12,140 nt of DNA from a virus, in the UHGV virus genome UHGV-0102870. One strand, written 5' to 3'. Every line of letters starts with the position of its first letter. The stretch's first letter is position 1. Position numbers and translations under genes: made by a program. Shown here one piece after another: positions 283-12,067 of the stretch. Under the pieces are notes generated by a model that saw nothing but the letters and a program-made list of their open reading frames with translations, did no database searches and was not told where the DNA came from.

Positions 283-774
283 TTATGCTCCTTCCGTCTG
301 CTGAACTGCCTGTTGTACGTAGCCCAGGGTGATAGCCACGCAGTTATTACCCGCGCTCACATCTTCCACCCAGAAACCCAAATCAATATTTCCGGCTGCT
401 TCTGTCGTCACCTTTCCGGCATCGGCACCCGTCGCCACGATGTAAGCCGCCGCGCCACGAGTAAAATCAGCGTCATCGACTGTCAGCGCGCCGACGCAGT
501 CGCCGTGAGAGAAATGCCCTACGTTGACCTGCTTGGTGTGCGGTGCACCTTCGCCGTAAATGTCGCGCACCACAATCCCGTGAATGCGTTTGCCAGCTGC
601 GAGAGGCATCACGCCGCCGTCCGGGTTGACAGCTACGAACGTGCCGTAGGGCAATTTCGTTTCGGTCAGGTTCTCTTCCCCCCAGACTTTATCGTTAGAG
701 CTGGAGGCGCGTTTGATTGAACCTGGTTTAATAGTGCCGTCGGCACCATCCCAGTCAGTAAATCCGAAAGCCAT
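283..774 (-). CDS. Small head structural protein (possibly decoration or cement protein), 163 aa
   Basis: ATG at 774-772; Gly/Ala/Val-rich sequence with no TM segment; lies between the scaffold-like gene and the putative capsid gene; 3-nt gaps to both neighbours. Function inferred from synteny only. Confidence 0.45.
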   Translation of the reverse strand: MAFGFTDWDGADGTIKPGSIKRASSSNDKVWGEENLTETKLPYGTFVAVNPDGGVMPLAAGKRIHGIVVRDIYGEGAPHTKQVNVGHFSHGDCVGALTVDDADFTRGAAAYIVATGADAGKVTTEAAGNIDLGFWVEDVSAGNNCVAITLGYVQQAVQQTEGA

Positions 775-776
775 AG

Positions 777-1922
777 TTATTTACCCCCAAGGCGTTGAGT
801 TGCGGTTTTAGTGCTTTTGTTCGCGGAGTCGTTAAACAGATGAGCACCGATTTCACTGCGTGGCTTCGAGGTGGCTTGAATAGCCGCATATGCCGCGCGG
901 ACTTCGCTGTCAGTCATTGCTTTGACCTCAGCATCGTTAAATGCTTTAGTGCTCACCAGTACGGCGGCACGCACGTCACGCGCTGATTTGGCATCATTGA
1001 AGCTGACTTTAGGGAAGCGGGCTTTCGCGTCTGCCAGTGTGGTGCTGGTTTCGTTGCCGGATTTCAGCTGCTCCAGTTCTTCTTCCAGCGCTTTAACCTT
1101 CGCTTTCAGATCGGCGTTTTCGGTTTCCAGCGCAGTGATTTTCGCGTCCTTGTCGTCACCACCAGCGGCAGGATCTTCATCGTTCGGCGATGGTGCCCCC
1201 GTCATGCCTTCCAGTTGAGTTTTAAGGTCAGCGAGTTGCGCCAGCACTTCCTGAGCCTTTGCCGTCGCCTCGTCAGTCCCTTGCCCCTGGAGTTCTGCCA
1301 GTGCTTTTTCCAGCGCGGCGATCATGCCGACCAGTTCGTCAGGAGTTAGCGCTGCACCGTCCGCATCCTTCAGTTTTTTGCCCTTCAGGAAACTCAGGGC
1401 GTCAGTTAATGTTTTGAACATCGGCTTACCTTTTTTGTCGTTTAACTTACACTGAGGCCCGTAGCGCCCCTCTGCCACGCCCGCGACATGATTGCCGCGA
1501 ATGTTGATGTGGTAATACTTACCGCCCCTTTCCTCGAGTTCAGCAGGCTCATATCCAACGGATACTTCACGAATCCCCGTTTCTTCCAGCGTCTTAATTG
1601 CAACGGCATCCGTCAGAAAAACGTCGCAGACCACCTCACCACCCTCGATACGGGTATTGGCGATATGACCGGATGCTTTGTCTTTGTGGTCTGCTGCGGT
1701 GACTTCCCCGTCGTCGGGGTGCGTTATGGTGAACGGGAGGCCATTGAATGAAGCGAGTGTTTCAGGTTTTGATAATTCGTCGAGGGTGCGGACAACGGTG
1801 ATTTTTTTGTTGGCATCGCTGCCAGTTAATCCCAGTTCGTGACCGTAATATTCAATCGGCCCTGCGCGGGTGATCGTCGCAGTGGTAATCACATACCCCT
1901 GCGGTGTTCGTTTCCACTTCAT
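777..1922 (-). CDS. Putative prohead scaffold/protease-like protein (DUF2213-like N-terminal domain with Ala/Glu/Lys-rich coiled-coil C-terminal half), 381 aa
   Basis: ATG at 1922-1920; C-terminal half has heptad-like stretches (ALEKALAELQGQG..., ENADLKAKVKALEEELEQLK) typical of scaffolding proteins; positioned after the MuF-like gene and before the head proteins. Confidence 0.55.
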   Translation of the reverse strand: MKWKRTPQGYVITTATITRAGPIEYYGHELGLTGSDANKKITVVRTLDELSKPETLASFNGLPFTITHPDDGEVTAADHKDKASGHIANTRIEGGEVVCDVFLTDAVAIKTLEETGIREVSVGYEPAELEERGGKYYHINIRGNHVAGVAEGRYGPQCKLNDKKGKPMFKTLTDALSFLKGKKLKDADGAALTPDELVGMIAALEKALAELQGQGTDEATAKAQEVLAQLADLKTQLEGMTGAPSPNDEDPAAGGDDKDAKITALETENADLKAKVKALEEELEQLKSGNETSTTLADAKARFPKVSFNDAKSARDVRAAVLVSTKAFNDAEVKAMTDSEVRAAYAAIQATSKPRSEIGAHLFNDSANKSTKTATQRLGGK

Positions 1923-1925
1923 TGA

Positions 1926-2777
1926 TTAATCCCATGAGACGTAAGGGAGGGCCAGACATCGGCATTGGTAATCCTCGCCGGGTTTACCGATGAATGCCCC
2001 GATGGTTGAGCGTTTCTTCCACGTTTTGCCGCCGTCGTCTGAGTAGACCGTCGGATCGGAGTATTTACAGAGCATGCCGTTTAACGCGGAATGACTGTCA
2101 CGCTCCCGTTCGTCGCCAGTACCTCCCCACTCATACAGGTCAAGACCAAGAGCAACATTTCGCGCTTCAGTCAGGTCTGCGTTCAGTTTTGAGGTCTGGT
2201 CACGTGCGATTAGCCTGGCGCGGTTGCGGGTGACATTCCCGCGCTCCTTGATTATGTCGATCAGGTTTTCATGTCGGCCGCCGTCTTTCATGTTCTCGAA
2301 AACCTCCGCGCCGATATCGTGGATAAAGTCGGTATGGATGGAGGTGATCAGGTCGACATTGTCATTAACCGCCTTTTCCATTTCTGGCTTTATCGCGCCA
2401 TCGCCGAGCATCCCGGTCAGATCAATCCCAAAAGCCTGAGAGAAAGTGCGCTGAGTCTGCTCTTTGTTCTGCAGGTTTGCCCGCGTAACGAATCCGGCAG
2501 AGAGTCGGGCGGCGACCTCCTGAATTGAAATGCTCGCTAATCGCTGCATGACTGCCGCAAGGCGCGCTGTAATCGACAAAGGAGTGGTATCGGGCGCATC
2601 GGTGAGTGTGGGCTTGTCCAGCTCGTCCAGGAGTGTCTGAAGCATGCTATCGACAAACTCAATCAGCCTGTCTCGATACCAGACCTCTGCACGCTTGCTG
2701 GCGGTTGGTGGCCGCATCCGTCGGCGTCGTGGTTTAAGGCGCCCCTGTTTGCGCTCCAGCAGCTGTTTCAGGTCCAT
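1926..2777 (-). CDS. Phage head morphogenesis protein (Mu F-like / SPP1 gp7-like minor head protein), 283 aa
   Basis: ATG at 2777-2775 overlapping the portal gene 3' end; basic N-terminus (RLKPRRRRMRPP); immediately downstream of the portal gene, the conserved position for MuF-like proteins. Confidence 0.65.
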   Translation of the reverse strand: MDLKQLLERKQGRLKPRRRRMRPPTASKRAEVWYRDRLIEFVDSMLQTLLDELDKPTLTDAPDTTPLSITARLAAVMQRLASISIQEVAARLSAGFVTRANLQNKEQTQRTFSQAFGIDLTGMLGDGAIKPEMEKAVNDNVDLITSIHTDFIHDIGAEVFENMKDGGRHENLIDIIKERGNVTRNRARLIARDQTSKLNADLTEARNVALGLDLYEWGGTGDERERDSHSALNGMLCKYSDPTVYSDDGGKTWKKRSTIGAFIGKPGEDYQCRCLALPYVSWD

Positions 2778-4057
2778 GTGCCACCCCCTGCGACAATCGC
2801 CTTAATTTCTGCTTCGGTGACCGTCTTCAGTACGCCCCGGTTTATCATTTCCCTGATAGCAACTTCTTCCGTCAGGATTGAACCCGTTACCAGCGTATTA
2901 AATCCGGTGGCGTACTGGCTAAACCGGTTAGCTTCGTCAGCCTCATTAATACTGTCGATTGTCGGGTATTCGTAGGTAAGGCTTTCCGTTATGGCGAGTT
3001 TATCCAGCGTGAACTGGTCGGCGAAATCCTGCATTGGACGAAGCCGGGACTCCTGAAGTCCGTTAATCGTCTCGTAATAGGATTTATTGTCTTCCTCTCC
3101 GCTGCTGAACCCGCTGGCAGACTCACCAAACAGAACCGTTATGGGCCTGTCCAGAGCACCGGCCAGTACAATCGCCATTTTGCTGATCACATCCGACAGT
3201 CCGGTAAATTGCGCGTTTTTCTGCTCATAGCGCCCTTGAGATGTTGTATCACCAGCGTCAATTAGCAGCAGCCCGGTTGAGGATTTAGTTTCCTTCATCA
3301 CCCTGGCGTATTCGCGCACCTGCCCTTCCTGACCCGCTGCGATCTGGTTATTCATGCCGGGGATAAACAGCACATCGACGTTTGCCTCCTGTATGGTGTC
3401 TCCGGTGCTGAGGATTGCTGTGTCGAAGGTTTTGATATGCTCATAGGGCGCCTGAAGGTCTGACGTGCCAAACTTTGCGCGATCCTTAATGCTGTGATTG
3501 CCCAGCTTTGTCCGGCAGCAGCGGGAATGATGAAACCTGAGTTGCTTCGTCCCGACATCAAGTTGATACGTCAGCGGCTCACCAAAACAGTCCGAACGTA
3601 TGTCGGTGATGACATTACTGTCCGGCGTGTACTCCCCTTTACGGAACACCAGGAATTTAACGATATCTTCGCTCTGCAAATTGAGCGGCAAGGCTATCTG
3701 GTCATCAGCACAATCCGTGATAGCCACGATTAGCGAGTCACCCAACAGAGAGGCCCATCCCAGCGCGCTGTGAAAGACTGCGTTTAATTTCAGTTCTTTT
3801 TCAGCGTCAGCGATGCGTTTGGTTATGGAGCTATCGACGTCGCCCGAAAATTTACGGGGCAACTTCAGCATGTCGTCGGCGGTTTTGTTGATGTACTTTT
3901 TCACCACCCACGATTTTTTATACATCGCGAGAAGTTCTTTATCCGGCACATCTGGCCTTGTGCTGCTGTACCGTACCGCTCCGATCTTCTCGCCGAGCGA
4001 GGTCATTAAGCTAACCAGGCCATCATTCAGACGACCAACGATATTTTTTCTCGTCAT
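2768..4057 (-). CDS. Portal protein, 429 aa
   Basis: ATG at 4057-4055 overlapping the TerL stop (TAATG); size and position directly after the large terminase; acidic, helix-rich sequence recalled as DUF1073-type portal. Confidence 0.7.
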   Translation of the reverse strand: MTRKNIVGRLNDGLVSLMTSLGEKIGAVRYSSTRPDVPDKELLAMYKKSWVVKKYINKTADDMLKLPRKFSGDVDSSITKRIADAEKELKLNAVFHSALGWASLLGDSLIVAITDCADDQIALPLNLQSEDIVKFLVFRKGEYTPDSNVITDIRSDCFGEPLTYQLDVGTKQLRFHHSRCCRTKLGNHSIKDRAKFGTSDLQAPYEHIKTFDTAILSTGDTIQEANVDVLFIPGMNNQIAAGQEGQVREYARVMKETKSSTGLLLIDAGDTTSQGRYEQKNAQFTGLSDVISKMAIVLAGALDRPITVLFGESASGFSSGEEDNKSYYETINGLQESRLRPMQDFADQFTLDKLAITESLTYEYPTIDSINEADEANRFSQYATGFNTLVTGSILTEEVAIREMINRGVLKTVTEAEIKAIVAGGGTWT

Positions 4058-5475
4058 TACATGATGTCCAGTGGGCTGAGTGTTTTTCTCTGATACAAAT
4101 CGCGTAACCCCTGCGTCATTGCATCGACAACGTCATCGTTCGCGCCAACAGGGAACGTGGTAATTTCCTCAACCGTCTCGGTGATCCACGGAGCGATGTC
4201 TTTATGGGGAAGGAAAACGTTACCTGCTTCCCATACAGCGGTGATCGCATGCGCCCGGGCGACTTTGCTGCCGTCCGGTTCAACGGGAACGAGTCCTGCT
4301 ACGGTGCTTTTCAGTGAATCAATAACCGCCGGGCCGTTGGCTTTATCCTCCACCAGCTTGCGCAGGCCTTTGGGGTATTCGTCGGCCATGCGTTTAACGG
4401 CTTTGAGTGTTGCGGTAAAGCTCATGCGCGCGCGCACCTGGTGAAGCAGATAAGCATTGGCGCCTTTTTTCCCCCATACCTGCCCGACAACGTAGTCGGT
4501 GCCCTCGCTGTCTTTGAAGGTCATATCCCAGCTATGGACGACAATATCGAAGTTGGTCGGCAAGTCTTTCGGGAGGTAATACTTGATCCACTCGTCTTTG
4601 AAGATTGAGCCGCCGGCCTGTTTTGGTGACTGCTGATACATCGCAGACCAGAAGTAATCCCCGAGAATGGTTTTGGTTTCGAGCAGCTTTTCTTTCGGGT
4701 GCAGTTCAGGCACCAGCGCTTCACCCTGCTCGTTGATTGCAGGGAACGCCAGCACCTTAGCGCGCGGCGTGATTTCCACCACACGCCCGGATAAATCATC
4801 TGTCGCCCAGCGGGTCGCCATGATGATTTCGCCGCTGTTTTTCGACAGACGCGTTTTAAACGTGGAAACGTACCAGTTCCAGATAGATTTTTTGGTCGTC
4901 GGGCTGAGTGCTTCTTTGGCGTTTTTTATCGGGTCATCGATGATACCGAGATCGATTTTCTTACCTGTTAACGGGCCGCCTACGCCCGCACAGACATACG
5001 TTCCCTTATGGTTGGCTATACCGAATTCGTCAGTGTTACGCTTTACGGCCACACCATCAGCCGGCTTATTTCCCAACCAGGCACCCGGAAATATGTTGCG
5101 GTATTCCGGCGTGGACATAATGCGCTGAACATCGGCGTTCATGTCCCCGGCAAGGTCAGCGGAGTACGACAAAGCGCCCACGCGCATTTCAGGATATTTT
5201 CCGAAGAAATACGCTGGCAGGTAACGCGAAACGATATCCGATTTACCATGCTGCGGCGGCGCACCGAGAATCAGTATCGGGCGCAGCCCGTTCATCATAT
5301 CCAGCAGGAACTGATCCAGAGCGTCGCAGACCGTCTGAGAGAACTTGCTGGTGATGTATTCGGGATTAATGTACTGAATGAAGTCGTGGAGGCTTGCCCG
5401 CGCATTGCGTCGTTTGAGTAACTCGGCCGCTGCTTCCTGCTTACTTACCAGCGATAATTGCGGCGAGCTGCTCAT
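4057..5475 (-). CDS. Terminase large subunit, 472 aa
   Basis: Walker A-like LGAPPQHGKS, Walker B-like IDLGIIDDP, and C-terminal nuclease-domain acidic motifs (HSWDMTF, GANDDVVDA); overlaps the 3' end of the small-subunit gene. Confidence 0.9.
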   Translation of the reverse strand: MSSSPQLSLVSKQEAAAELLKRRNARASLHDFIQYINPEYITSKFSQTVCDALDQFLLDMMNGLRPILILGAPPQHGKSDIVSRYLPAYFFGKYPEMRVGALSYSADLAGDMNADVQRIMSTPEYRNIFPGAWLGNKPADGVAVKRNTDEFGIANHKGTYVCAGVGGPLTGKKIDLGIIDDPIKNAKEALSPTTKKSIWNWYVSTFKTRLSKNSGEIIMATRWATDDLSGRVVEITPRAKVLAFPAINEQGEALVPELHPKEKLLETKTILGDYFWSAMYQQSPKQAGGSIFKDEWIKYYLPKDLPTNFDIVVHSWDMTFKDSEGTDYVVGQVWGKKGANAYLLHQVRARMSFTATLKAVKRMADEYPKGLRKLVEDKANGPAVIDSLKSTVAGLVPVEPDGSKVARAHAITAVWEAGNVFLPHKDIAPWITETVEEITTFPVGANDDVVDAMTQGLRDLYQRKTLSPLDIM

Positions 5476-5920
5476 CAGTCAGATCCTCCGCGCTTACTGT
5501 GTGATTATGCTGTATGGGCTCACCATTCGGGCCTGAATGTTCAAGCTTCTGCTTGTTGCTATATGCCTCGCCAACTTCTTTCGCGGCCTGTTCGAGGAGT
5601 TGGGCCGTCATACCGATATTTTTCATATTCTCAGCGGTCATCGACATCCTTTGCAGGACACGCAGCCGATAGGCTTTATTGGCGATCGGGATATCGGAAA
5701 TTTCATTCTGGAAGCGTTCGCGAGTTGCGTTGAAAAGTTCGACCCACTTTTTTGCGAGCGTCTTACCGCTGGCCTTCGTGGGGTCGTGAGATTCAGCCTG
5801 CTGGCGGGTGATCTTGATCCCGAATTCTTTTTGGACAGCCTCGACCACCTGCGATGGCGTGTCATAGCACGCAAGCGACTGAATGATGAAGGCTTTCACA
5901 TCAGGTTTTAATGCAGCCAT
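5441..5920 (-). CDS. Putative terminase small subunit (DUF2280-like), 159 aa
   Basis: ATG at 5920-5918 with GGTGA upstream; small protein immediately upstream of and overlapping TerL; N-terminal region looks like a DNA-binding domain. Assignment mainly positional. Confidence 0.6.
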   Translation of the reverse strand: MAALKPDVKAFIIQSLACYDTPSQVVEAVQKEFGIKITRQQAESHDPTKASGKTLAKKWVELFNATRERFQNEISDIPIANKAYRLRVLQRMSMTAENMKNIGMTAQLLEQAAKEVGEAYSNKQKLEHSGPNGEPIQHNHTVSAEDLTDEQLAAIIAGK

Positions 5921-5951
5921 AAATCACCATTCGTCTTATACAGTCCAGTAT

Positions 5952-6584
5952 TTAAGCCAGTTTCAGCATGCACGTCCCGCACGCTCTGGCGATGTTAAGT
6001 TTTGCCACCTCTGCAGGTTGATTTGCTGCGTCCACCAGCTCTTGCACGTCGGCACTCGCTCCGTATCGCCGAACCACGCCAACGAACTCTTCAACGTCGT
6101 GGCCGCGTAGGTATAGCTTTGGCAATCCGGAATCGCGGTAGAACTTCGGGGAGCCGAATTCATCGGTCTCCTGCGCTATGTGGTAAAGCTCATGCTCTAC
6201 CAGCGCGCAGAATTCCAGGTCAGAGCATTGCAGGCAGAAGTCACCGGCCAGCGTGATAATGAAGTCCGGTTTATGTCCGAACCACTCATGCATCTGCTGT
6301 TCCATCCGGGCTTTTTGCCATCCACCAGCACGCATCATTACCTCTTCGGCCTGACCGAGAACGGCTCGCCCTTTTTTGGTGAATGCGGTTGCCGCCCACA
6401 AGAACGCTATATCAGCATCAGCGAGGTGTGCGTGGTCAGGGTTATGCAGATGACCGGAATCGGCGATGATTTGCTCCTGCACCCATTGCCATACACCATC
6501 AGCAGGAGCTAACCGAATGTACGGAGCGAACTCTCCGACGAATGCGGATGATGGCAGCGGGCGGAGATCATCTTCATTCGCCAT
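5952..6584 (-). CDS. HExxH-motif protein, putative phage metallopeptidase-like, about 210 aa
   Basis: Start taken at the internal ATG (6584-6582, MANEDDLRPL...) with AGGAAG 6 nt upstream; the upstream ATG at 6611 abuts the terminator hairpin and lacks an SD. Contains HELYH (HExxH) in VEHELYHIAQETDEFG. Confidence 0.55.
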   Translation of the reverse strand: MANEDDLRPLPSSAFVGEFAPYIRLAPADGVWQWVQEQIIADSGHLHNPDHAHLADADIAFLWAATAFTKKGRAVLGQAEEVMMRAGGWQKARMEQQMHEWFGHKPDFIITLAGDFCLQCSDLEFCALVEHELYHIAQETDEFGSPKFYRDSGLPKLYLRGHDVEEFVGVVRRYGASADVQELVDAANQPAEVAKLNIARACGTCMLKLA

Positions 6585-6610
6585 GGTTATCTTCCTGAGG
6601 TTTGGCTCCA

Positions 6611-6638
6611 TTAAAAAAGCCCCGCATTAGCGAGGCTT
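6611..6638 (-). terminator. Rho-independent terminator downstream of the small AT-rich ORF
   Basis: On the minus strand: 9-bp stem with one mismatch (AAGCCTCGC / GCGGGGCTT), 4-nt loop, then a run of six U followed by AA and two more U; lies 20 nt past the stop of the 6659-6955 ORF. Confidence 0.55.
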
Positions 6639-6658: not shown

Positions 6659-6955
6659 TTACTTCAACTTAGCGAGATAGCTGATAACCATATCCAGGCT
6701 TACACGATCCTGTCCATCTGAGTACCAAGTATTAGGGGCTGGCTGATTGGCTTTGTACAGGGCATCAATGTTTAGGTTGATGTCAGTCACTTTAAAATCT
6801 CGATCATCAGGGTCAAGCTTTGATGAAATGATCTGACAGGAGCCTTCAGGTACTTTTTTGTGGTAACCAAGCTCATGGTTTTTACAGTAAATCTCGTACT
6901 TGATGGTAGACCCATCGTCCGTTTTCAAAATGAAAGAGTGAATTAAGTGCTTCAT
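6659..6955 (-). CDS. Hypothetical small protein, about 98 aa, AT-rich moron-like gene
   Basis: ATG at 6955-6953 (MKHLIHSF...) with a G-rich SD-like stretch 6 nt upstream; visibly lower G+C and different codon usage than the flanking phage genes; flanked by a candidate promoter and a terminator. No recognisable family. Confidence 0.5.
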   Translation of the reverse strand: MKHLIHSFILKTDDGSTIKYEIYCKNHELGYHKKVPEGSCQIISSKLDPDDRDFKVTDINLNIDALYKANQPAPNTWYSDGQDRVSLDMVISYLAKLK

Positions 6956-6992
6956 GAAAACCCCCACTATTAGTGTGAGTTATCACTTTAGC

Positions 6993-7001
6993 ATTATCAC
7001 A
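6993..7001 (-). promoter_or_regulatory. Candidate extended -10 promoter (TGTGATAAT) for the 6659-6955 ORF
   Basis: Minus-strand TGnGATAAT about 40 nt upstream of the ORF start; no good -35. Sits within two direct TTATCAC repeats (plus 6980-6986 and 6994-7000), next to an imperfect palindrome at 7001-7019. Confidence 0.3.
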
Positions 7002-7037
7002 GGCACTCAGTGAATGCCTGCTGTAATGCCTGGCTAT

Positions 7038-7382
7038 TTATCTCAGGAAGAGGTTGGCTGCATACTCGCCGTCAACGAAGACATCACATTCCTTTGCGTC
7101 ACGGGAAAACTTACAGCGGGCCATAACTTTTTTACCCTTATAGTCGCCGTTGTATACGTTCGTGTAGCTTTGGGCGAAAGCGGCCGAAAGACTTTTATCC
7201 TGGTTAAGGAATGAATCATCAACAACCAGGACATCATTAACCCACAACTTCAGTATTCCGTTTGGCATATTGGCACTAATGAGCATCTGCTCTCCATTGG
7301 GAGAGCGATAAGGTTGCTGTGCAGAATAGTTAGTGCATCCTGCAAGCAGGAGCGCAGAAAGCAAAACGGTAATACGCTTCAT
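7038..7382 (-). CDS. Putative lipoprotein (moron-like), about 114 aa
   Basis: N-terminus MKRITVLLSALLLAGC: basic n-region, hydrophobic core, lipobox L-A-G-C. AGGTGA SD 10 nt before the ATG at 7382; an in-frame ATG at 7388 is too close to the SD. Confidence 0.7.
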   Translation of the reverse strand: MKRITVLLSALLLAGCTNYSAQQPYRSPNGEQMLISANMPNGILKLWVNDVLVVDDSFLNQDKSLSAAFAQSYTNVYNGDYKGKKVMARCKFSRDAKECDVFVDGEYAANLFLR

Positions 7383-7498
7383 GGACATTCATTCACCTAA
7401 GTTAAATTATTGATTGATATGGTTTTAATATCACTAAAAATTAAACTATCAGCGCCTGGTTGTACACATGAAAATTGTTGTTATTTGAAGCTTAGCAA

Positions 7499-7969
7499 TC
7501 ATCTAATGCACTGCTCACGCACATACGCTTGCAGGCCTGTCAGTTGGCTGGTGATGGTTTCGATTCGCTCTCTGAGGGTGAAATAATCCCGTTCAGCGGC
7601 GTCAGTAAGTCGGGGGCCGGTTGCATCATCCAGGCCGGTGGCGCTGGCCGTTCCGTTCGCGGGACAGGTTGCGTTGAGCTGCAACCGACGTTTGCCAGCA
7701 GCAACATCACGCTCAAGCTGATCGATAGTGGCTTTGGCATCAGCCAGTTCTCCGGTGTATTTGGCATCCAGTGCAGCGACATCACGCTGGCGGGTCTGCA
7801 TGTCTTTAATGGTGGCGGTCGCCAGGAGGAGTTTCTCAGTGGCCTTATCGCGCTGGTCTCTGTAAGTGATGGCGTTGTCGCGGTAGTGGTTCACGAAGAA
7901 AGCCAGTGCGCCGATTAACGCCAGCACCAGCAACTGCAGCCAGTAACGCTTAACCAGTGCGCTAATCAT
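7499..7969 (-). CDS. Rz: i-spanin Rz, 156 aa
   Basis: N-terminal TM segment then coiled coil; clear similarity to lambda Rz as I recall it ([62 protein letters not shown]); start overlaps the endolysin stop. Confidence 0.9.
7540..7740 (-). CDS. Rz1: o-spanin Rz1 lipoprotein, embedded in the +1 frame of Rz, about 66 aa
   Basis: ORF lies entirely inside Rz in another frame; [20 protein letters not shown] signal with lipobox Cys; proline-rich mature part [24 protein letters not shown] closely matches lambda Rz1 ([25 protein letters not shown]) from memory. Start could instead be the ATG at 7707. Confidence 0.8.
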
Positions 7970-8406
7970 GACAGGAACAGAGCTCGCTCTGCCTCCCGCC
8001 GACGTGTCAGCCCATTCAGCACCTTCCCACCAGCTTTATTCCAGCGCAGGAACTCATCGGCTGCACCAGCGTAATCTCCGGCGTTGAGTTTTCGCAGGAG
8101 AGTCGATGTCGACAATGACCGCGCACCGAGGTTATACGTGAACGACACCAGGGCATCGAATTGCCCCTGAGTCAGGCCAACTTTAACCAGTCGTGACACG
8201 TCACTTTCGTAACTGACCATTCCTGTCTTCAGCAGGCGTTCTGCCGTTTCCTGCTTAATTGTCATCCCGGCACGGATTGGTTTCCCGTCGACGGGCTGAG
8301 TCCAGCCATAACCGATCGTCCAAACGCCGACGCTGTCCTGATAGGCAGTGAGCTTGCAACCTTCGAACTCTTTGATCAGGGCAATGCCTTTATCACTGGT
8401 TTGCAT
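7966..8406 (-). CDS. Endolysin, phage lysozyme (T4 lysozyme / GH24 type, P22 gp19-like), 146 aa
   Basis: N-terminal catalytic region [28 protein letters not shown] and C-terminal [12 protein letters not shown] match the P22 gp19 lysozyme family as I recall it; no N-terminal SAR/TM segment; overlaps the holin stop. Confidence 0.92.
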
Positions 8407-8710
8407 TCTTCATCCCCGTCAGTCGTTCCCAGAAGTACGTCAGTGCCACGGAGCCCATCGCCCCGCTGATACCAGACGTAACCAGAATCATGTAAAGGCT
8501 CAGCCCACTTTCAACGCTGATCAGTCCACCAATGAGACCGGTAAAGCCGGACACTGCAATTTGTGCCAGCGCGTTGATCCAGCTCCAGGTGGCTTTGTTC
8601 TGCTTAACGTCAATAAGGTATCGGACCAAGCCGCCCCAGCATGACAGAGCAAGGACAATCAGCCATGACACTCCGGCAATGCTTTCTTTATCTTGCATAC
8701 GTTTAGCCAT
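8393..8710 (-). CDS. Holin (three predicted TM segments, class I-like), about 105 aa
   Basis: ATG at 8710-8708 with a strong SD (GGAGGT) just upstream; three hydrophobic segments and a short charged C-terminus; directly upstream of the endolysin. The annotated ORF extension to 8824 uses GTG inside the terminator hairpin and is rejected. Confidence 0.75.
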   Translation of the reverse strand: MAKRMQDKESIAGVSWLIVLALSCWGGLVRYLIDVKQNKATWSWINALAQIAVSGFTGLIGGLISVESGLSLYMILVTSGISGAMGSVALTYFWERLTGMKNANQ

Positions 8711-8768
8711 ATCACCTCCGAAAGAACGGGGTGCTGTTTGTAGTAAGGGATCAGGCCCTCGGGACGAT

Positions 8769-9161
8769 TTAACAAGAAGGCATGTCGATGATGATTCCCG
8801 TGAGCCTGAAAACAAAAAAGCCACCCTTAGGTGGCTTGTGAGTGTACGAAGTCCGGATTCCTTTCTTCGCTTTTAATAGAGCGTTATCTTCTTTCAGGCT
8901 ATCTACTTGGTCTCGCAACCTTTCAAGTTCTTTCTCGGCTCTGTCACGGTCACGCTGAAGACCTTTTATCACTTCGCCTTGGGACGCCTGTACTTCTTTG
9001 AGAATCTGGACGTTAGCTTCGGACTCATCGACAGTGTCGATAATCCTAACAGCAAAAAACGATACGATAGCCATAAGCAGACCAACCATCGTAGTAAGAA
9101 TCCAGACCTTCACACCGGAAGCAGAATTTTCAGAGGCTTCTATAAGAAATTCCTTATGCAT
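8769..9161 (-). CDS. Hypothetical membrane-anchored coiled-coil protein, about 130 aa; possibly a gene remnant
   Basis: ATG at 9161-9159 (MHKEFLIEAS...), weak SD; one N-terminal TM segment (WILTTMVGLLMAIVSFFAV) then heptad-like charged region (RDRDRAEKELERLRDQVDSLKEDNALLKAKKG). The last ~25 codons are encoded by the terminator hairpin and U-tract (KPPKGGFFVF), so the 3' end is doubtful. Confidence 0.4.
   Translation of the reverse strand: MHKEFLIEASENSASGVKVWILTTMVGLLMAIVSFFAVRIIDTVDESEANVQILKEVQASQGEVIKGLQRDRDRAEKELERLRDQVDSLKEDNALLKAKKGIRTSYTHKPPKGGFFVFRLTGIIIDMPSC
8809..8837 (-). terminator. Strong rho-independent terminator (tR'-like) about 100 nt upstream of the holin
   Basis: Minus-strand RNA: perfect 8-bp stem AAGCCACC / GGUGGCUU with 4-nt loop, followed by UUUUUUGUUUU. 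Confidence 0.7.
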
Positions 9162-9787: not shown

Positions 9788-9816
9788 AATATATGCTATT
9801 TAGTTCATTTCTGCAA
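9788..9816 (-). promoter_or_regulatory. Candidate sigma70 late promoter (pR'-like) immediately downstream of the Q-like gene
   Basis: Minus strand: TTGCAG (-35), 17-nt spacer, TATATT (-10); predicted start near 9781. The -35 lies 9 nt past the Q stop codon, mirroring the lambda Q/pR' arrangement. Confidence 0.4.
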
Positions 9817-10489
9817 TACCTTGCTGATAATTTGCTGCCTTTTGTTGTGAACGTGATCGCGAAACATGATGTAGTGACTGTGAGTCCAGCCTCTTATACA
9901 AACTGACCATTGCATCGTAATGTTCCACGTAATTCTGAGACCAGTTTGTTTTATTAACGCCCACCAGCGCAGCCAGATCGCCATACTGATACACATCCCT
10001 CCCAGCTAACTCGTTTTTCACATCCTGCGCCGCCAGCCATATCAACTGACGCAACCGCTCGATAGTCTTTTTCGCCACCCTCTTCCCAGCCAGTTGCTGG
10101 CTGAACTGTTGCCAACCCCACTGAGTGATTTCAACCTGATAGCACCAGCGCACATTCTCGCTGTAGGTCCAGAGCAACCATGCTCTCTGATGGTCTTCCA
10201 GAGACAGGACAGCGCGGCGCCATGATGCGGTGCCGAACTCTACCGGACTCACCAGCGCGATTGACGAGCCCTTGGCGCGTGACTGACTGCCGCTCATCGG
10301 CGGGCCGTCTGGGTTAACCATGCGCTTTTTCTGCGCGTCATAGACTTTCTTCCGCCCCCGGCTGCGCGCCGTCGCGGTGAATTGAGCGTTCTCGGCGAAA
10401 GCGACCAGCTGCCCTTTCGTCGCCCCGCTGAGGTCTGCGGTCGCCACAATGAGCTGCTGACGTACGTATTCCAGTTGCTGACTGTTCAT
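9800..10489 (-). CDS. Putative late-gene antitermination protein (Q-like), 229 aa
   Basis: ATG at 10489-10487 with AGGAAG SD; position is diagnostic (after nin/RusA genes, immediately before promoter, terminator and lysis cassette). Not the lambda Q zinc-finger type; assignment is positional plus vague family recollection. Confidence 0.5.
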   Translation of the reverse strand: MNSQQLEYVRQQLIVATADLSGATKGQLVAFAENAQFTATARSRGRKKVYDAQKKRMVNPDGPPMSGSQSRAKGSSIALVSPVEFGTASWRRAVLSLEDHQRAWLLWTYSENVRWCYQVEITQWGWQQFSQQLAGKRVAKKTIERLRQLIWLAAQDVKNELAGRDVYQYGDLAALVGVNKTNWSQNYVEHYDAMVSLYKRLDSQSLHHVSRSRSQQKAANYQQGIAEMN

Positions 10490-10598: not shown

Positions 10599-10958
10599 TC
10601 ACGGTGCGCACTCCCCGATAATGATCTGCCCCTTCTCTCCCCAGACCTTTGTGATGCGGCAATCCCAGATGTGAGCATCATCCTCATAAAGCGCATCCAT
10701 CAGGGCTTTCAGCATGTTGTCGCAGTCTGGCTTGGCCTGGTGGGGCTTCCCGGCGAACTCCGCTCGTTTCTTCTTACTCCAGCTTGGTGGCATTGGTAGG
10801 ACGAATGTCACATGTGATCCGGATTCAGGCATGGTCAACTTGCGCAGGCGGACCTCATCGCAAAAAGCGCGGTAACGCATTACAGGTGGACGCTGCTTCC
10901 ACTTATCCGCGCGGGTCATGCGAGGCTTGCCGATTGGTGTGATGTCGTAGATTTTCAT
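10599..10958 (-). CDS. RusA-like Holliday junction resolvase, 119 aa
   Basis: Motif KPDCDNMLKALMDALYEDDAHIWD resembles the RusA catalytic signature (D-x-D-N ... DAL ... DDA) from memory; typical nin-region position; start overlaps the upstream stop (ATGA). Confidence 0.6.
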   Translation of the reverse strand: MKIYDITPIGKPRMTRADKWKQRPPVMRYRAFCDEVRLRKLTMPESGSHVTFVLPMPPSWSKKKRAEFAGKPHQAKPDCDNMLKALMDALYEDDAHIWDCRITKVWGEKGQIIIGECAP

Positions 10959-11239
10959 GCAGGCACCACCAAGCCACGACGGGCAATCTGAATAATGGTC
11001 AGGACGATGGCGCGATCCATTAACTGGCGGCGCTCGTCACGGCTAAGCCCCTTCCCGTTATCAATCTCTGAATGGCAGGTGACACAGATAGCGGCGGTGG
11101 CGCAGTCGTCTGTCTTCATGCCAATTCCCTTACCTTCATTGCGGTGTGCTACCTGTACGCCCCACGCTCCGCAAAGGACGCATTGCTCAATCTGGCCGAC
11201 TGCGGCGAGCCACTTCTTGCTGCGGTAGGTTTTACTCAT
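10955..11239 (-). CDS. YbcO-like (DUF1364-like) Cys/His-motif protein, putative nuclease, about 94 aa
   Basis: ATG at 11239-11237; Cys/His spacing C-x2-C ... H ... C-x2-C-H (CVLCG...VAHRN...CVTCH) suggestive of a zinc-binding HNH-like fold; located between phosphatase and RusA-like genes as in lambdoid nin regions. Confidence 0.5.
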
Positions 11240-11900
11240 GGTCACCACCTTGCACCTGAACCAGCGTGAGGTTTCCGCAAAACACCGCTCCTGTGTCGAT
11301 GTACATCTGGTTGGCATACTTCAGGGGCTGGCGCGCAGGGGTGTGGCCGAAGATAAACAGATCAGCACCGGCTATCGGCGAGACAATGCCGCCCTGAGCG
11401 TCGCTAACCCGCTCACGATTCCAGATGACCATGTCTTTCGGGACCGGCTTGTCGAACGCATATTCGTTATGCGGGTAGTCAGCGTGGCAAATTACGATTT
11501 TCCGATCGGAGGTAACCAGCTCGATGATGAGTGGTAACTCAGCTGCCTTGTGAACCAGAGCCTTAGCCAGCACCTCTTTGTCATAGTCGAGATTGAAGAA
11601 CCAACCGCCACCGTTTACCAGCCAGTGATTGACGTTTCCATACTCTGAAAGCCCATCAACCATCATCTGCTCATGGTTACCGCGCACTGCCCTGAACCAC
11701 GGCATAGTAATCAGATCCAGGCACTCGACGTTTTCCGCGCCGCGGTCAACAAGGTCACCAACCGAGATCAGCAAATCACGCGCAGGGTCGAACGAAACCT
11801 TTTCGAGCTCATTCATCAGCCGCGTGTAGCACCCATGCAGATCGCCGACGACGAAGATATTGCGCCAGTCAGCGCCATTAATTCGTTGATACATGCTCAT
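11232..11900 (-). CDS. Serine/threonine protein phosphatase (lambda NinI / PP-lambda-like metallophosphatase), about 222 aa
   Basis: Metallophosphatase motifs GDLHG, GDLVDRG, RGNHE and strong overall match to lambda phosphatase as I recall it ([65 protein letters not shown]); ATG at 11900 with GAGGAG SD. Confidence 0.9.
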
Positions 11901-12067
11901 GCTGATTTTCTCCTCGCTGCGAGACGCAGCCATTTCTGATCCACCAGGCGGGCGGTGTAGTCTTTCAGGGTCGGGATATCGGACGGCTTAACCGCGGGCT
12001 TAGGCTTGCGGCGCGCCGGAACGCGAAAGATTTCGTTTGTGATGACGCGGGAAAGTGGAGTTGACAT
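11897..12067 (-). CDS. Small basic protein, NinE-like, 56 aa
   Basis: Hand-translated minus-strand ORF not in the supplied track (under 60 aa): [63 protein letters not shown] upstream; its stop overlaps the phosphatase start (ATGA). Family assignment from memory. Confidence 0.5.

Follow-up and report, generated by a model that had tools for sequence, protein, structure and literature searches.

A zincin-like putative metallopeptidase gene paired with a DUF2280 probable small terminase gene across phages

The window, by which I mean the whole 12,140-nt stretch of virus genome UHGV-0102870 that was analysed, encodes on its minus strand a 210-aa protein that is read from an ATG at 6584 to a TAA stop at 5954-5952. 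The gene and the features around it are:

5952-6584, minus strand: PF18894 zincin-like coding sequence, 210 aa (ORF list, Pfam, PHROG, homologues, AlphaFold model)
5441-5920, minus strand: DUF2280 protein, 159 aa, probable small terminase, TerS (Pfam DUF2280, E 4.8e-51)
4057-5475, minus strand: large terminase, TerL, Terminase_6N/6C (Pfam)
777-1922: DUF2213 protein, 381 aa, with a coiled-coil C-terminal part
6659-6967 and 7038-7388: small genes upstream of the PF18894 gene, no assigned function (ORF list)
6591-6596, minus strand: Shine-Dalgarno-like AGGAAG, 6 nt 5' of ATG 6584 (sequence reading)
6617-6638, minus strand: intrinsic-terminator-like hairpin, a 9-pair stem followed by a T run (terminator scan)

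The DUF2280 gene is the next gene downstream, in agreement with the first-pass annotation, which had placed the reading frame directly upstream of the small terminase gene. It is judged the probable small terminase: DUF2280 proteins have been deposited as 'terminase small subunit' in phages Magia, vB_E192a, and SA1, and the end of terS overlaps the start of terL by 35 nt. No solved relative of the DUF2280 protein was found. On the other side, the hairpin closes the upstream moron unit just 5' of the PF18894 gene; the product of 7038-7388 has a lipoprotein signal, and Rz, lysozyme, and holin genes lie beyond the two small genes. The DUF2213 protein may be a scaffold or a protease, and Rfam gave no match anywhere in the window.

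A longer reading of the same frame is possible from an ATG at 6611. The ATG at 6584 is the better start because homologues are mostly 205-212 aa long with alignments that begin at about residue 1-8, because AGGAAG at 6596-6591 lies 6 nt before it, and because ATG 6611 sits in the T-tail that follows the terminator-like hairpin (6638-6617).

The 210-aa protein matched PF18894 ('putative phage metallopeptidase') with an E-value of 2.6e-43 and 147.7 bits. Membership of this family was judged by the curated gathering score of 23.7 and a match over the entire profile, and the profile was covered whole (positions 1-134 of 134 against residues 41-197 of the 219-aa form). The protein also matched PHROG 513 (E 3.9e-98), whose label 'transposase' looks like a mis-annotation. 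PF18894, PHROG 513, and the RefSeq name 'putative metallopeptidase' all designate the same family. NCBIfam held no model for either the PF18894 or the DUF2280 gene. A total of 4177 homologues were found, and the relatives at 70-94% identity, from Citrobacter, Enterobacter, Pantoea, Salmonella, and E. coli prophages, bear that same RefSeq name; the window gene is typical of the family and departs from it in nothing. As a gene it is no novelty: its family is catalogued and automatic annotation already names it. Its role had earlier been called undefined, which still holds in that literature searches on the PF18894 family, on DUF2280, and on metallopeptidases with terminases returned two annotation-level mentions only, nothing functional, and no experimental role; the gene is nevertheless not an unrecognised one, given its curated Pfam family and routine RefSeq name. 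The added result is its context, namely a constant DUF2280 partner next to exchanged TerL, head, and upstream genes.

The residues discussed below map to the window as follows:

6180-6194, minus strand: H131-E132-L-Y-H135 (HELYH, an HExxH motif), presumed metal-binding/catalytic (direct reading, CAT GAG CTT TAC CAC)
6426-6434, minus strand: H51-A-H53 (HxH), a core in common with the short-form clade (97% and 95% conserved)
6087-6101, minus strand: H162-D163-V-E165-E166 (HDxExF), candidate third-ligand or second-shell residues before helix 168-174 (conservation and predicted secondary structure)
5970-5981, minus strand: C202-G-T-C205 (CGxC), C-terminal, terminase-linked clade only (clade comparison)
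6558-6563, minus strand: R8-P9 of an N-terminal RPxP(P), terminase-linked clade only (clade comparison)

Conservation was assessed in 131 diverse family members at 34-73% identity. H131 and E132 were invariant and H135 was 99% conserved, so that both the HELYH zinc-metalloprotease motif reported by the first-pass annotation (residues 131-135) and its expected conservation in homologues are borne out. The family splits into a clade of ~210-aa, terminase-linked proteins and a short-form clade: HExxH was present in 98-100% of both, HDxExF in 95% and 98% of the two, and HxH was kept in PHB04-type short forms as PEHEHL. H162, D163, and E165 were conserved at 98%, 93%, and 96%, respectively, and D141, which extends the motif to HExxHxxxxxD, in 87-92% of members; judged from this pattern, D141, H162, D163, and E165 are candidate additional metal ligands. 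In zincins the third ligand follows the HExxH in the sequence and is Glu in gluzincins but His or Asp in metzincin-like enzymes. Other features differed between the clades: CGxC occurred in 93% of the ~210-aa clade versus 2% of the short-form clade, and RPxP(P) in 80% of the terminase-linked clade versus 3% of short forms, with P9 being 89% conserved. The protein is under purifying selection. Synonymous sites of the gene vary freely along its length, hence it is the protein and not the DNA that is conserved, and no clear dip in synonymous variation, such as an embedded cis element would cause, was seen.

Some family members bear a fused N-terminal HTH ('long forms'), although this extra domain gave only borderline matches to generic HTH models; homology to the N-domain of DUF2280 was considered and dropped, there being no hhalign signal. 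The 210-aa form appeared rich in acidic residues when judged by eye, and no DNA-binding domain is recognisable in it.

An AlphaFold model of the 210-aa protein (pLDDT 95, pTM 0.90) placed the HExxH at the C-terminal end of a predicted helix, 122-134, and showed the zincin arrangement, in which the HExxH alpha-helix packs on a mixed beta-sheet with a backing helix. Together with the full-length PF18894 match, this model supports the description as an HExxH zincin-like protein, and the profile search and structure prediction that had been proposed as checks of a zincin fold both came out in its favour. The best structural matches were minigluzincins and M48-type zincins (projannalysin 4jix, selecase 4qhf, abylysin 4jiu, BepA 6sar, and HtpX 3cqb), which have in common with the model a beta-sheet, a backing helix, the HExxH helix, and then a helix that opens with a conserved Glu (E165/E166). 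The likeness to solved zincins is weak, with about 82 of 210 residues aligning: Foldseek against the PDB gave nothing significant, sequence searches of solved structures, whether run from the one protein or from a profile of 131 sequences, gave no match, and the sole match in a library of viral predicted structures was another PF18894 family member.

Other known enzyme classes fitted less well. SprT, Spartan, and Wss1 carry HExxHxxxxxH where the window protein has HExxHxxxxxD, Pfam found no SprT match, and the 210-aa form lacks a zinc-ribbon or DNA-binding subdomain; by signature and SprT/WLM model it falls outside the SprT/Wss1-like DNA-dependent proteases; a role in DNA-protein crosslink repair as in these enzymes found no support. 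There was likewise no Peptidase_M78 match paired with an XRE-type repressor, as would be expected of an ImmA/IrrE (M78) repressor-cleaving peptidase, and an HNH packaging-accessory endonuclease was dismissed as Pfam found no HNH domain and the fold is zincin-like.

The arrangement with DUF2280 proved to be constant. A DUF2280 gene lay immediately 3' of the PF18894 gene in 265 of 265 informative related loci, which comprised 186 viral or phage loci (186/186, with a gap of usually 30-32 or 58 nt) and 79 loci from bacterial genomes taken at one per species (79/79). These loci span Enterobacterales, Pseudomonas, Acinetobacter, Burkholderia-type, and Rhizobium phages; the pair is found in JBD44, PhabP_R1, VBM1, RHph_N28_2, BgManors32, and ENT47670, and was kept in three deeply divergent metagenomic lineages with the extra N-terminal HTH. 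Genus counts within the phage collection were equal for both genes (Acinetobacter 62/62, Pseudomonas 44/44, Vibrio 8/8, and Burkholderia 7/7). Upstream genes were freely exchanged and adjacency to lysis genes was not conserved, lysis genes not being its neighbours in JBD44 or in Acinetobacter, Vibrio, Rhizobium, and Burkholderia phages. The earlier description of a gene set between lysis morons and terS is correct for the window but does not make it a moron, since it is the adjacency to DUF2280 that is essentially universal: it is best read as the gene that opens the DNA-packaging module.

The two genes were also found apart. Salinibacter phages (181 records that amount to one lineage) have DUF2280 with no PF18894 gene and a membrane protein upstream instead; the idea that this upstream gene is a diverged PF18894 was rejected (hhalign probability 0.1, membrane-protein look by eye). 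Conversely, PF18894 occurs without DUF2280 as ~173-aa short forms in early/DNA-metabolism regions of PHB04-like phages, and also in P0234, which means that the fold does not by itself make a packaging factor. When satellite-like elements that carry the pair without TerL were looked for, five loci had space for TerL but no large ORF. None was a clear satellite: three look like decayed prophages and one looks like a possible TerS-TerL fusion.

Comparing identities among the linked genes indicated what travels with what. Median pairwise identity was 0.74 for the zincin, 0.69 for the TerS N-domain, and 0.16 for TerL. Zincin identity correlated best with the TerS N-domain (r 0.49), and identity of the TerS C-tail tracked TerL (r 0.42), versus r 0.14 for the TerS N-domain and TerL. 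One mosaic boundary runs through terS, the other lies 5' of the zincin gene. The TerL partners of the pair belong to at least three Pfam families, including Terminase_3, Terminase_6, and GpA, and the pair precedes unrelated head modules.

Short repeats were found around the start of terS:

5933-5949, minus strand: heptamer boxes R1 ACTGGAC (5949-5943) and R2 ATAAGAC (5939-5933), direct, 10 nt apart
5830-5836, minus strand: R3, an inverted box, GTCCAAA on the coding strand (complement of TTTGGAC), in terS codons 29-31

R1 and R2 lie between the two genes, in a spacer of 31 nt, and directly precede the terS ribosome-binding site. The window holds a degenerate copy that matches at only 4/7 positions. 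Related loci conserve the repeat, with covariation: 139/189 unique junctions had a direct repeat that matches at 6/7 or better, versus 23/189 shuffled ones. R3 is fixed in position at terS nt 81-85 and matched the unit of its own locus at 6/7 or better in 61% of loci, versus 15% when units were swapped between loci. The boxes stay with the 5' end of terS, not with the 3' end of the zincin gene. Going by their sequence pattern, the covarying boxes look like an SPP1-style pac site, for which they are a candidate. The SPP1 pac, made up of pacL, pacC, and pacR with direct-repeat boxes, overlaps the ribosome-binding site and the 5' coding region of gene 1 (PMC6316719; PMC4737164), namely the part that encodes the DNA-binding domain (PMC6316719). 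Common to both are direct repeats just 5' of the small-terminase start and an element inside the part that encodes the DNA-binding domain; the box sequences and the TerS family differ, and SPP1 has no upstream zincin gene. Pairing of the spacer boxes with the inverted terS box at the RNA level is unlikely, as the complementarity does not extend beyond the 7-nt unit, most of the mismatches examined are other than G-U, and two direct copies would be left unexplained; RNAalifold found no helix between them.

The reading I tentatively favour, with slightly more doubt than belief, is that the PF18894 product acts as a zinc hydrolase alongside the small terminase when DNA packaging is initiated, such that the fixed adjacency to DUF2280 would reflect a common function at that step. 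The protein would be a soluble, ~24-kDa, zincin-fold, metal-dependent hydrolase with a metal site built round H131, E132, and H135, for which D141, H162, D163, and E165 are further candidates, and its gene forms a fixed two-gene unit with the DUF2280 terS, divided by a short, repeat-bearing spacer. It may hydrolyse a protein substrate at or near the initiation complex that TerS builds on the pac region, a candidate being TerS itself or a protein bound to pac-region DNA and, less likely, a nucleic-acid-linked group, and so help the terminase to start or to turn over. The chemistry would presumably be proteolysis. The packaging reading is weakened because DUF2280 functions without a PF18894 gene in the Salinibacter phages, because PF18894 proteins in turn occur without DUF2280, because the likeness to solved zincins is weak, and because tight adjacency could stem from linkage to the pac/TerS recognition unit alone. 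Moreover, five conserved His together with the conserved Asp and Glu exceed the needs of a mononuclear peptidase, and the chemistry may therefore not be proteolysis.

Rather than working on the terminase, the enzyme could be a host-directed or anti-defence protease that cleaves a host protein such as an immune sensor or a terminase-interfering factor, and that heads the late packaging operon for timing only. Phages are generally known to encode zincins with other proteins as targets, reading past the moron terminator meets this gene first, short forms sit among early accessory genes as is typical of host takeover, and the conserved N-terminal RPxP could be a docking peptide. Counter-defence genes, however, are usually sporadic, whereas PF18894 stands beside a single TerS family in 265/265 informative loci, in several bacterial orders and with TerLs of at least three families, and stays with terS while everything upstream changes; the PADLOC defence models gave a chance-level match only (E 0.0033, 14 bits, 30 residues) and no match to any defence-related model. 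I regard this role as unlikely. The excess of metal-type residues common to both clades (H51, H53, H131, H135, D141, H162, D163, and E165) instead speaks for a hydrolase of zincin fold whose substrate is nucleic acid or a nucleotide and which, for example, aids the first cut or the processing of pac DNA ends, in an HNH-like part, as do the existence of HTH fusions, the VRR_NUC nuclease and DNA methylase genes that adjoin short forms, and a Vsr-type endonuclease gene just upstream in Acinetobacter phages (PMC7760358). This seems quite unlikely given that the closest structural matches are peptidases, that an HExxH whose Glu never varies is classically the mark of a peptidase, that TerL already has a nuclease for pac cleavage (Terminase_6C), and that the 210-aa form looks acidic by eye with no recognisable DNA-binding domain.

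The pair might also be held together with no common function, if the gene is co-inherited with the cis-acting pac boxes and the recognition half of terS that it lies next to, where recombination is rarely tolerated. A spacer of only about 31 nt with functional-looking boxes, mosaic boundaries that bracket the unit inside terS and upstream of the zincin gene, and a moderate zincin/TerS-N correlation, which indicates that the two are not strictly co-adapted, all fit mere linkage. The pair, however, survives a spacer of 283 nt (Rhizobium phage) or 527-555 nt, a terminator hairpin between the genes (Acinetobacter), and even the insertion of a 240-aa gene; the boxes follow terS, and the lack of a suppressed-synonymous stretch gives no sign of a long cis element, making linkage alone very unlikely. 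Capsid maturation and lysis regulation, both raised by the first-pass annotation, are hardly credible. Their only support is the position in the window between the lysis cassette and the head genes. Against them, the same pair precedes unrelated head modules, two long-form loci that were checked encode their own S78 prohead protease, the window itself has the DUF2213 protein as a possible scaffold or protease, and lysis genes are not neighbours in the phages named above.

Packaging initiation is usually described with TerS and TerL only, and a PF18894 enzyme that acts there would add a hydrolytic step to this process and offer a handle on how pac-recognition modules move between phages; if the link is only positional, the gene is an ordinary uncharacterised accessory gene. 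A bolder form of the packaging reading, possible but rather doubtful, is that DUF2280-type terminases need the zincin as a third component, and that zincin, TerS DNA-binding domain, and covarying boxes make up a portable pac-recognition module, able to be combined with unrelated TerLs. Were this true, it would define a new class of packaging accessory enzyme, of a standing comparable to the HNH proteins of HK97-like phages. HNH endonuclease genes (for example HK97 gp74) adjoin terminase genes in these phages, in association with cos phages and with particular types of TerL and portal. They resemble PF18894 in position alone, each being a small metal-dependent enzyme gene beside terminase genes in many phages, and so offer a helpful functional parallel for an accessory enzyme of packaging: the HNH fold is a beta-beta-alpha-metal nuclease, unrelated in fold and motif to the PF18894 zincin, and PF18894, unlike HNH, keeps to a single TerS family and combines with many types of TerL. 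The covarying boxes, finally, are a candidate for the pac site of many temperate phages, among them phages that infect Pseudomonas, Acinetobacter, Klebsiella, E. coli, and related hosts, and this would bear on generalised transduction.

The gene at 5952-6584 (minus strand) does encode the HELYH motif that the first-pass annotation had claimed; it lies at 6194-6180 (minus strand), residues 131-135 of a 210-residue product. Its start is likely the ATG at 6584, since homologues are 205-212 residues long, AGGAAG sits 6 nt before that ATG, and the alternative ATG at 6611 falls in the T-tail of a terminator-like hairpin (6638-6617). An alignment of 131 cluster representatives (34-73% identity to the query) showed that H-E-x-x-H is kept in the homologues, which upholds the proposal: H131 and E132 were invariant and H135 was 99% conserved. 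Besides HExxH, the positions H51, H53, W63, W89, G103, T111, D141, H162-D163-x-E165, R173, G175, and C202-G-x-C205 were nearly invariant, and the conserved D141 makes the motif HExxHxxxxxD. Judging from the aligned sequences, the motif is not there by chance.

The profile search suggested alongside the first-pass annotation matched PF18894 ("Putative phage metallopeptidase") along the full length of the profile, with a score of 147.7 bits (cut-off 23.7); PHROG 513, matched with an E-value of 3.9e-98, is labelled "transposase". The gene is a PF18894 member showing every testable feature of the family, and as an annotation it is ordinary: a word-indexed homologue search yielded 4177 relatives, an exhaustive search of 50%-identity cluster representatives gave 805 clusters at E ≤ 0.001, relatives carry the NCBI/RefSeq name "putative metallopeptidase", and the zincin gene is annotated together with a DUF2280 gene in 51 of 5426 complete E. 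coli genomes.

An AlphaFold2 model built on the 131-sequence alignment was very confident (mean pLDDT 95, pTM 0.90) and comprised a beta-sheet (59-81), a helix (88-102), a strand (108-113), a helix (122-134) ending in HExxH, and later helices from 168. Searching the solved structures by sequence found no related one, structural matches to solved zincins spanned only ~80-110 residues at 10-16% identity, and Foldseek gave no significant match. The predicted core thus appears zincin-like, with HExxH closing helix 122-134 as the first reading would require, in a protein far from every solved family. It falls outside the minigluzincin, M48, SprT/Wss1, and ImmA/IrrE groups, from all of which it differs in lacking a sequence match and in its third-residue signature.

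Members of ~173 residues (Bordetella phage PHB04 type) form a distinct clade which retains HxH, HExxH...D, and HDxExF. The N-terminal RPxP was found in 80% of the ~210-residue clade vs 3% of the ~173-residue clade, and the C-terminal CGxC in 93% vs 2%. The motifs kept in both clades leave a common core of five histidines plus conserved Asp and Glu residues, which, on the sequences, would exceed the needs of a standard mononuclear zincin. The short forms (L002/L191, which are PHB04, and L192-L196) lie among early/DNA-metabolism genes in phages about 60-165 kb in size; their neighbours there include a VRR_NUC nuclease, DNA methylases, and a GcrA-like regulator, and DUF2280 does not adjoin them. 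Long forms of 250-330 residues (loci L089 and L090, at about 2290-2340; proteins P0133, P0137, P0140, P0146, P0192, and others) have an added HTH-like domain at the N terminus that matches HTH_8 and HTH_Tnp_1 at a borderline level; this could be where the old "transposase" label comes from. L089 also has three copies of a 15-nt unit (TGGACCACCGTTTAG) across the zincin stop codon, before the usual heptamer boxes.

The window is late-region DNA from a lambdoid temperate phage, and its zincin gene recurs unchanged, among nearly identical neighbours, on a 43-kb IMG/VR contig (L003). All genes discussed lie on the minus strand and are listed in transcription order.

Genes of the window
11232-11933, minus strand, protein phosphatase-like ORF (identity judged from sequence)
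10599-10958, minus strand, RusA
9800-10489, minus strand, Q antiterminator
8393-8824, minus strand, LydA-type holin
7966-8406, minus strand, lysozyme
7499-7969, minus strand, Rz
7038-7388, minus strand, small gene for a 116-residue lipoprotein (lipoprotein signal peptide MSMKRITVLLSALLLAGC)
6659-6967, minus strand, small gene for a 102-residue protein
5952-6584, minus strand, zincin gene (PF18894)
5441-5920, minus strand, DUF2280 protein gene (terS, probable small terminase)
4057-5475, minus strand, large terminase (TerL)
2768-4057, minus strand, portal
1926-2777, minus strand, Mu-F-like head protein
777-1922, minus strand, DUF2213 protein with coiled-coil tail
283-774, minus strand, cement/minor-capsid protein

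The first-pass annotation had placed the gene directly before the small terminase, and this arrangement turned out to be general: a DUF2280 gene lay directly 3' of the zincin gene in 80 of the 80 closest IMG/VR loci, whose TerL, portal, and upstream genes were often not recognisably similar to the window's own. Once the set was enlarged by six annotated phages, metagenomic long forms, and loci gathered with Acinetobacter and Burkholderia phage seeds, 186 loci had the pair and only five did not, these being three contig-end cuts and two copies of phage PHB04. Among bacterial genomes, taken one per species, the pair was present in 79 of 80 loci, the exception being a 684-bp contig. In the GenBank phage collection, zincin and DUF2280 counts were 62/62 in Acinetobacter, 44/44 in Pseudomonas, 8/8 in Vibrio, 7/7 in Burkholderia, and 2/2 in several further genera. 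The two genes were usually separated by 30-32 nt in Enterobacterales and by 58 nt in Acinetobacter phages. Pairing with this one TerS family is near-obligate in Proteobacteria.

Exceptions were one 213-residue family member with no DUF2280 nearby, another with a 240-residue gene inserted between the two, and 181 near-identical Salinibacter phages that have DUF2280 but a membrane protein upstream. In Salinibacter phage 1_25 (L088, 3930-4480), DUF2280 apparently starts at 4001 (MARLRD...), which puts its start 75 nt upstream of where it is annotated; the preceding gene encodes 172 residues of membrane-protein-like sequence, not PF18894, and a single box-like sequence (GCTGGAC) is visible upstream. 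An Ewingella genome (L219, 6659-8746) has a 695-residue ORF after the zincin gene, beginning at the expected terS start; either TerS and TerL are fused here or the assembly contains a frameshift. In Acinetobacter phages (L084, L092-L171), the zincin stop is separated from the heptamer boxes by a terminator-like hairpin (GAGCC....GGCTC, then T8), and a Vsr-type endonuclease gene overlaps the zincin gene start (PMC7760358).

Median pairwise identity over 88 loci was high for the zincin (0.74) and TerS residues 1-105 (0.69), lower for the TerS tail (0.51), and lowest for TerL (0.16). The best correlate of zincin identity was the TerS N-domain (Spearman 0.49), and TerL identity was tracked by the TerS tail (0.42), not by the N-domain (0.14). 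The last ~25-30 TerS residues stopped matching between loci whenever the TerL type differed, which places a mosaic joint inside terS; in the window, terS and terL overlap by 35 nt (5441-5475). The TerL partners ranged over Terminase_3, Terminase_6N/6C, lambda-type GpA, and unclassified types. On these results, zincin, spacer, and TerS N-domain together make up the evolutionary unit, which is carried on interchangeable motors. The pair is independent of TerL type, head module, and upstream genes. Synonymous sites of the zincin gene varied freely (normalised synonymous entropy 0.45-0.88, mean 0.67, similar to terS), so the conserved entity is the protein and not a hidden DNA element.

A pair of direct heptamers, 10 nt apart, directly follows the zincin stop and lies close to the terS ribosome-binding site on its 5' side. 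Their sequence varied among loci while both copies agreed within a locus: CCTGGAC, ACTGGAC, TTATGAC, TTTATAC, CTTTGGA, or CAGGAC in Enterobacterales, GCTAGAC, GTTATAC, GGTTGAC, or CCTTGAC in Acinetobacter phages, and TTTTGAC, TCTGGAC, or TTTGGAC in Pseudomonas. A repeat matching at least 6/7 was present in 139 of 189 unique junctions vs 23 after shuffling. A third, inverted copy occupied a fixed place in terS (nt 81-85, codons 29-31) and matched its own locus unit at ≥6/7 in 61%, compared with 15% when units were swapped between loci; it sometimes tracked an amino-acid change (V-L-K with CAGGAC vs V-Q-K with CTGGAC). Loci L004, L024, L041, L116, L134, L231, and L248 are examples with three agreeing boxes, and in a Rhizobium phage the boxes stay at the terS 5' end though the zincin gene is 283 nt off. 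The window's own element is degenerate.

Boxes of the window
5949-5943, minus strand, R1, direct box ACTGGAC
5939-5933, minus strand, R2, direct box ATAAGAC
5836-5830, minus strand, R3, inverted copy GTCCAAA

I take the boxes to be protein-binding and, by analogy, most plausibly the TerS recognition part of a candidate pac site. In SPP1, pac has direct-repeat boxes and overlaps both the ribosome-binding site and the stretch of gene 1 that encodes the DNA-binding domain (PMC6316719; PMC4737164), a layout resembling boxes beside the terS ribosome-binding site with a copy inside terS. An RNA helix between the boxes is a less probable reading: complementarity does not extend past the unit, most of the mismatches that were examined are not wobble pairs, and RNAalifold found no helix pairing the boxes.

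The first-pass annotation was right about the zincin identity and in calling the role undefined, while the roles it suggested mostly did not hold. The zincin-fold protein is conserved and presumably catalytic, some family members carry a fused N-terminal HTH, and pac-like boxes adjoin the gene. My tentative preference is for an enzyme that works together with TerS when packaging is initiated; in the simplest version it would be a metal-dependent protease processing or clearing a protein at the TerS-pac complex, with the clade-specific RPxP and CGxC ends as candidate contact surfaces. Among functional analogues, the HNH endonuclease encoded alongside the terminase genes of HK97-like phages comes nearest, in position only. 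A protease directed at the host or at its defences, merely well placed in the operon, is unlikely; somewhat less probable again is a non-peptidase hydrolase working on DNA or nucleotides at pac, and pure linkage to the pac/TerS unit is more doubtful still. Capsid maturation or lysis control, both raised in the first reading, are highly improbable: head modules were varied, two of them with their own S78 protease, and most lineages had no lysis neighbours.

The literature search found no paper testing the PF18894 family or noting its DUF2280 pairing, annotation tables giving the only mentions; within the reach of these searches, both the pairing and the boxes, which are correlative findings, are undescribed. 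The zincin gene yields a clear, testable hypothesis of a hydrolase in packaging initiation, and the boxes yield a candidate pac site.

Upstream of the pair, the two small genes and the strong terminator-like hairpin 3' of them (6638-6617, minus strand) form a typical moron inserted between packaging and lysis genes; neither protein matched Pfam, PHROG, NCBIfam, or PADLOC. The ~45 nt between these genes (6987-7031) are 97-100% identical in otherwise unrelated phages, with near-identity in Klebsiella prophages, phi80, mEp390, Pectobacterium ZF40, and one Elizabethkingia phage record. This stretch holds a 6-bp hairpin (CAGGCA...TGCCTG) followed by TGATAAT, and may serve the moron as a promoter or terminator cassette.
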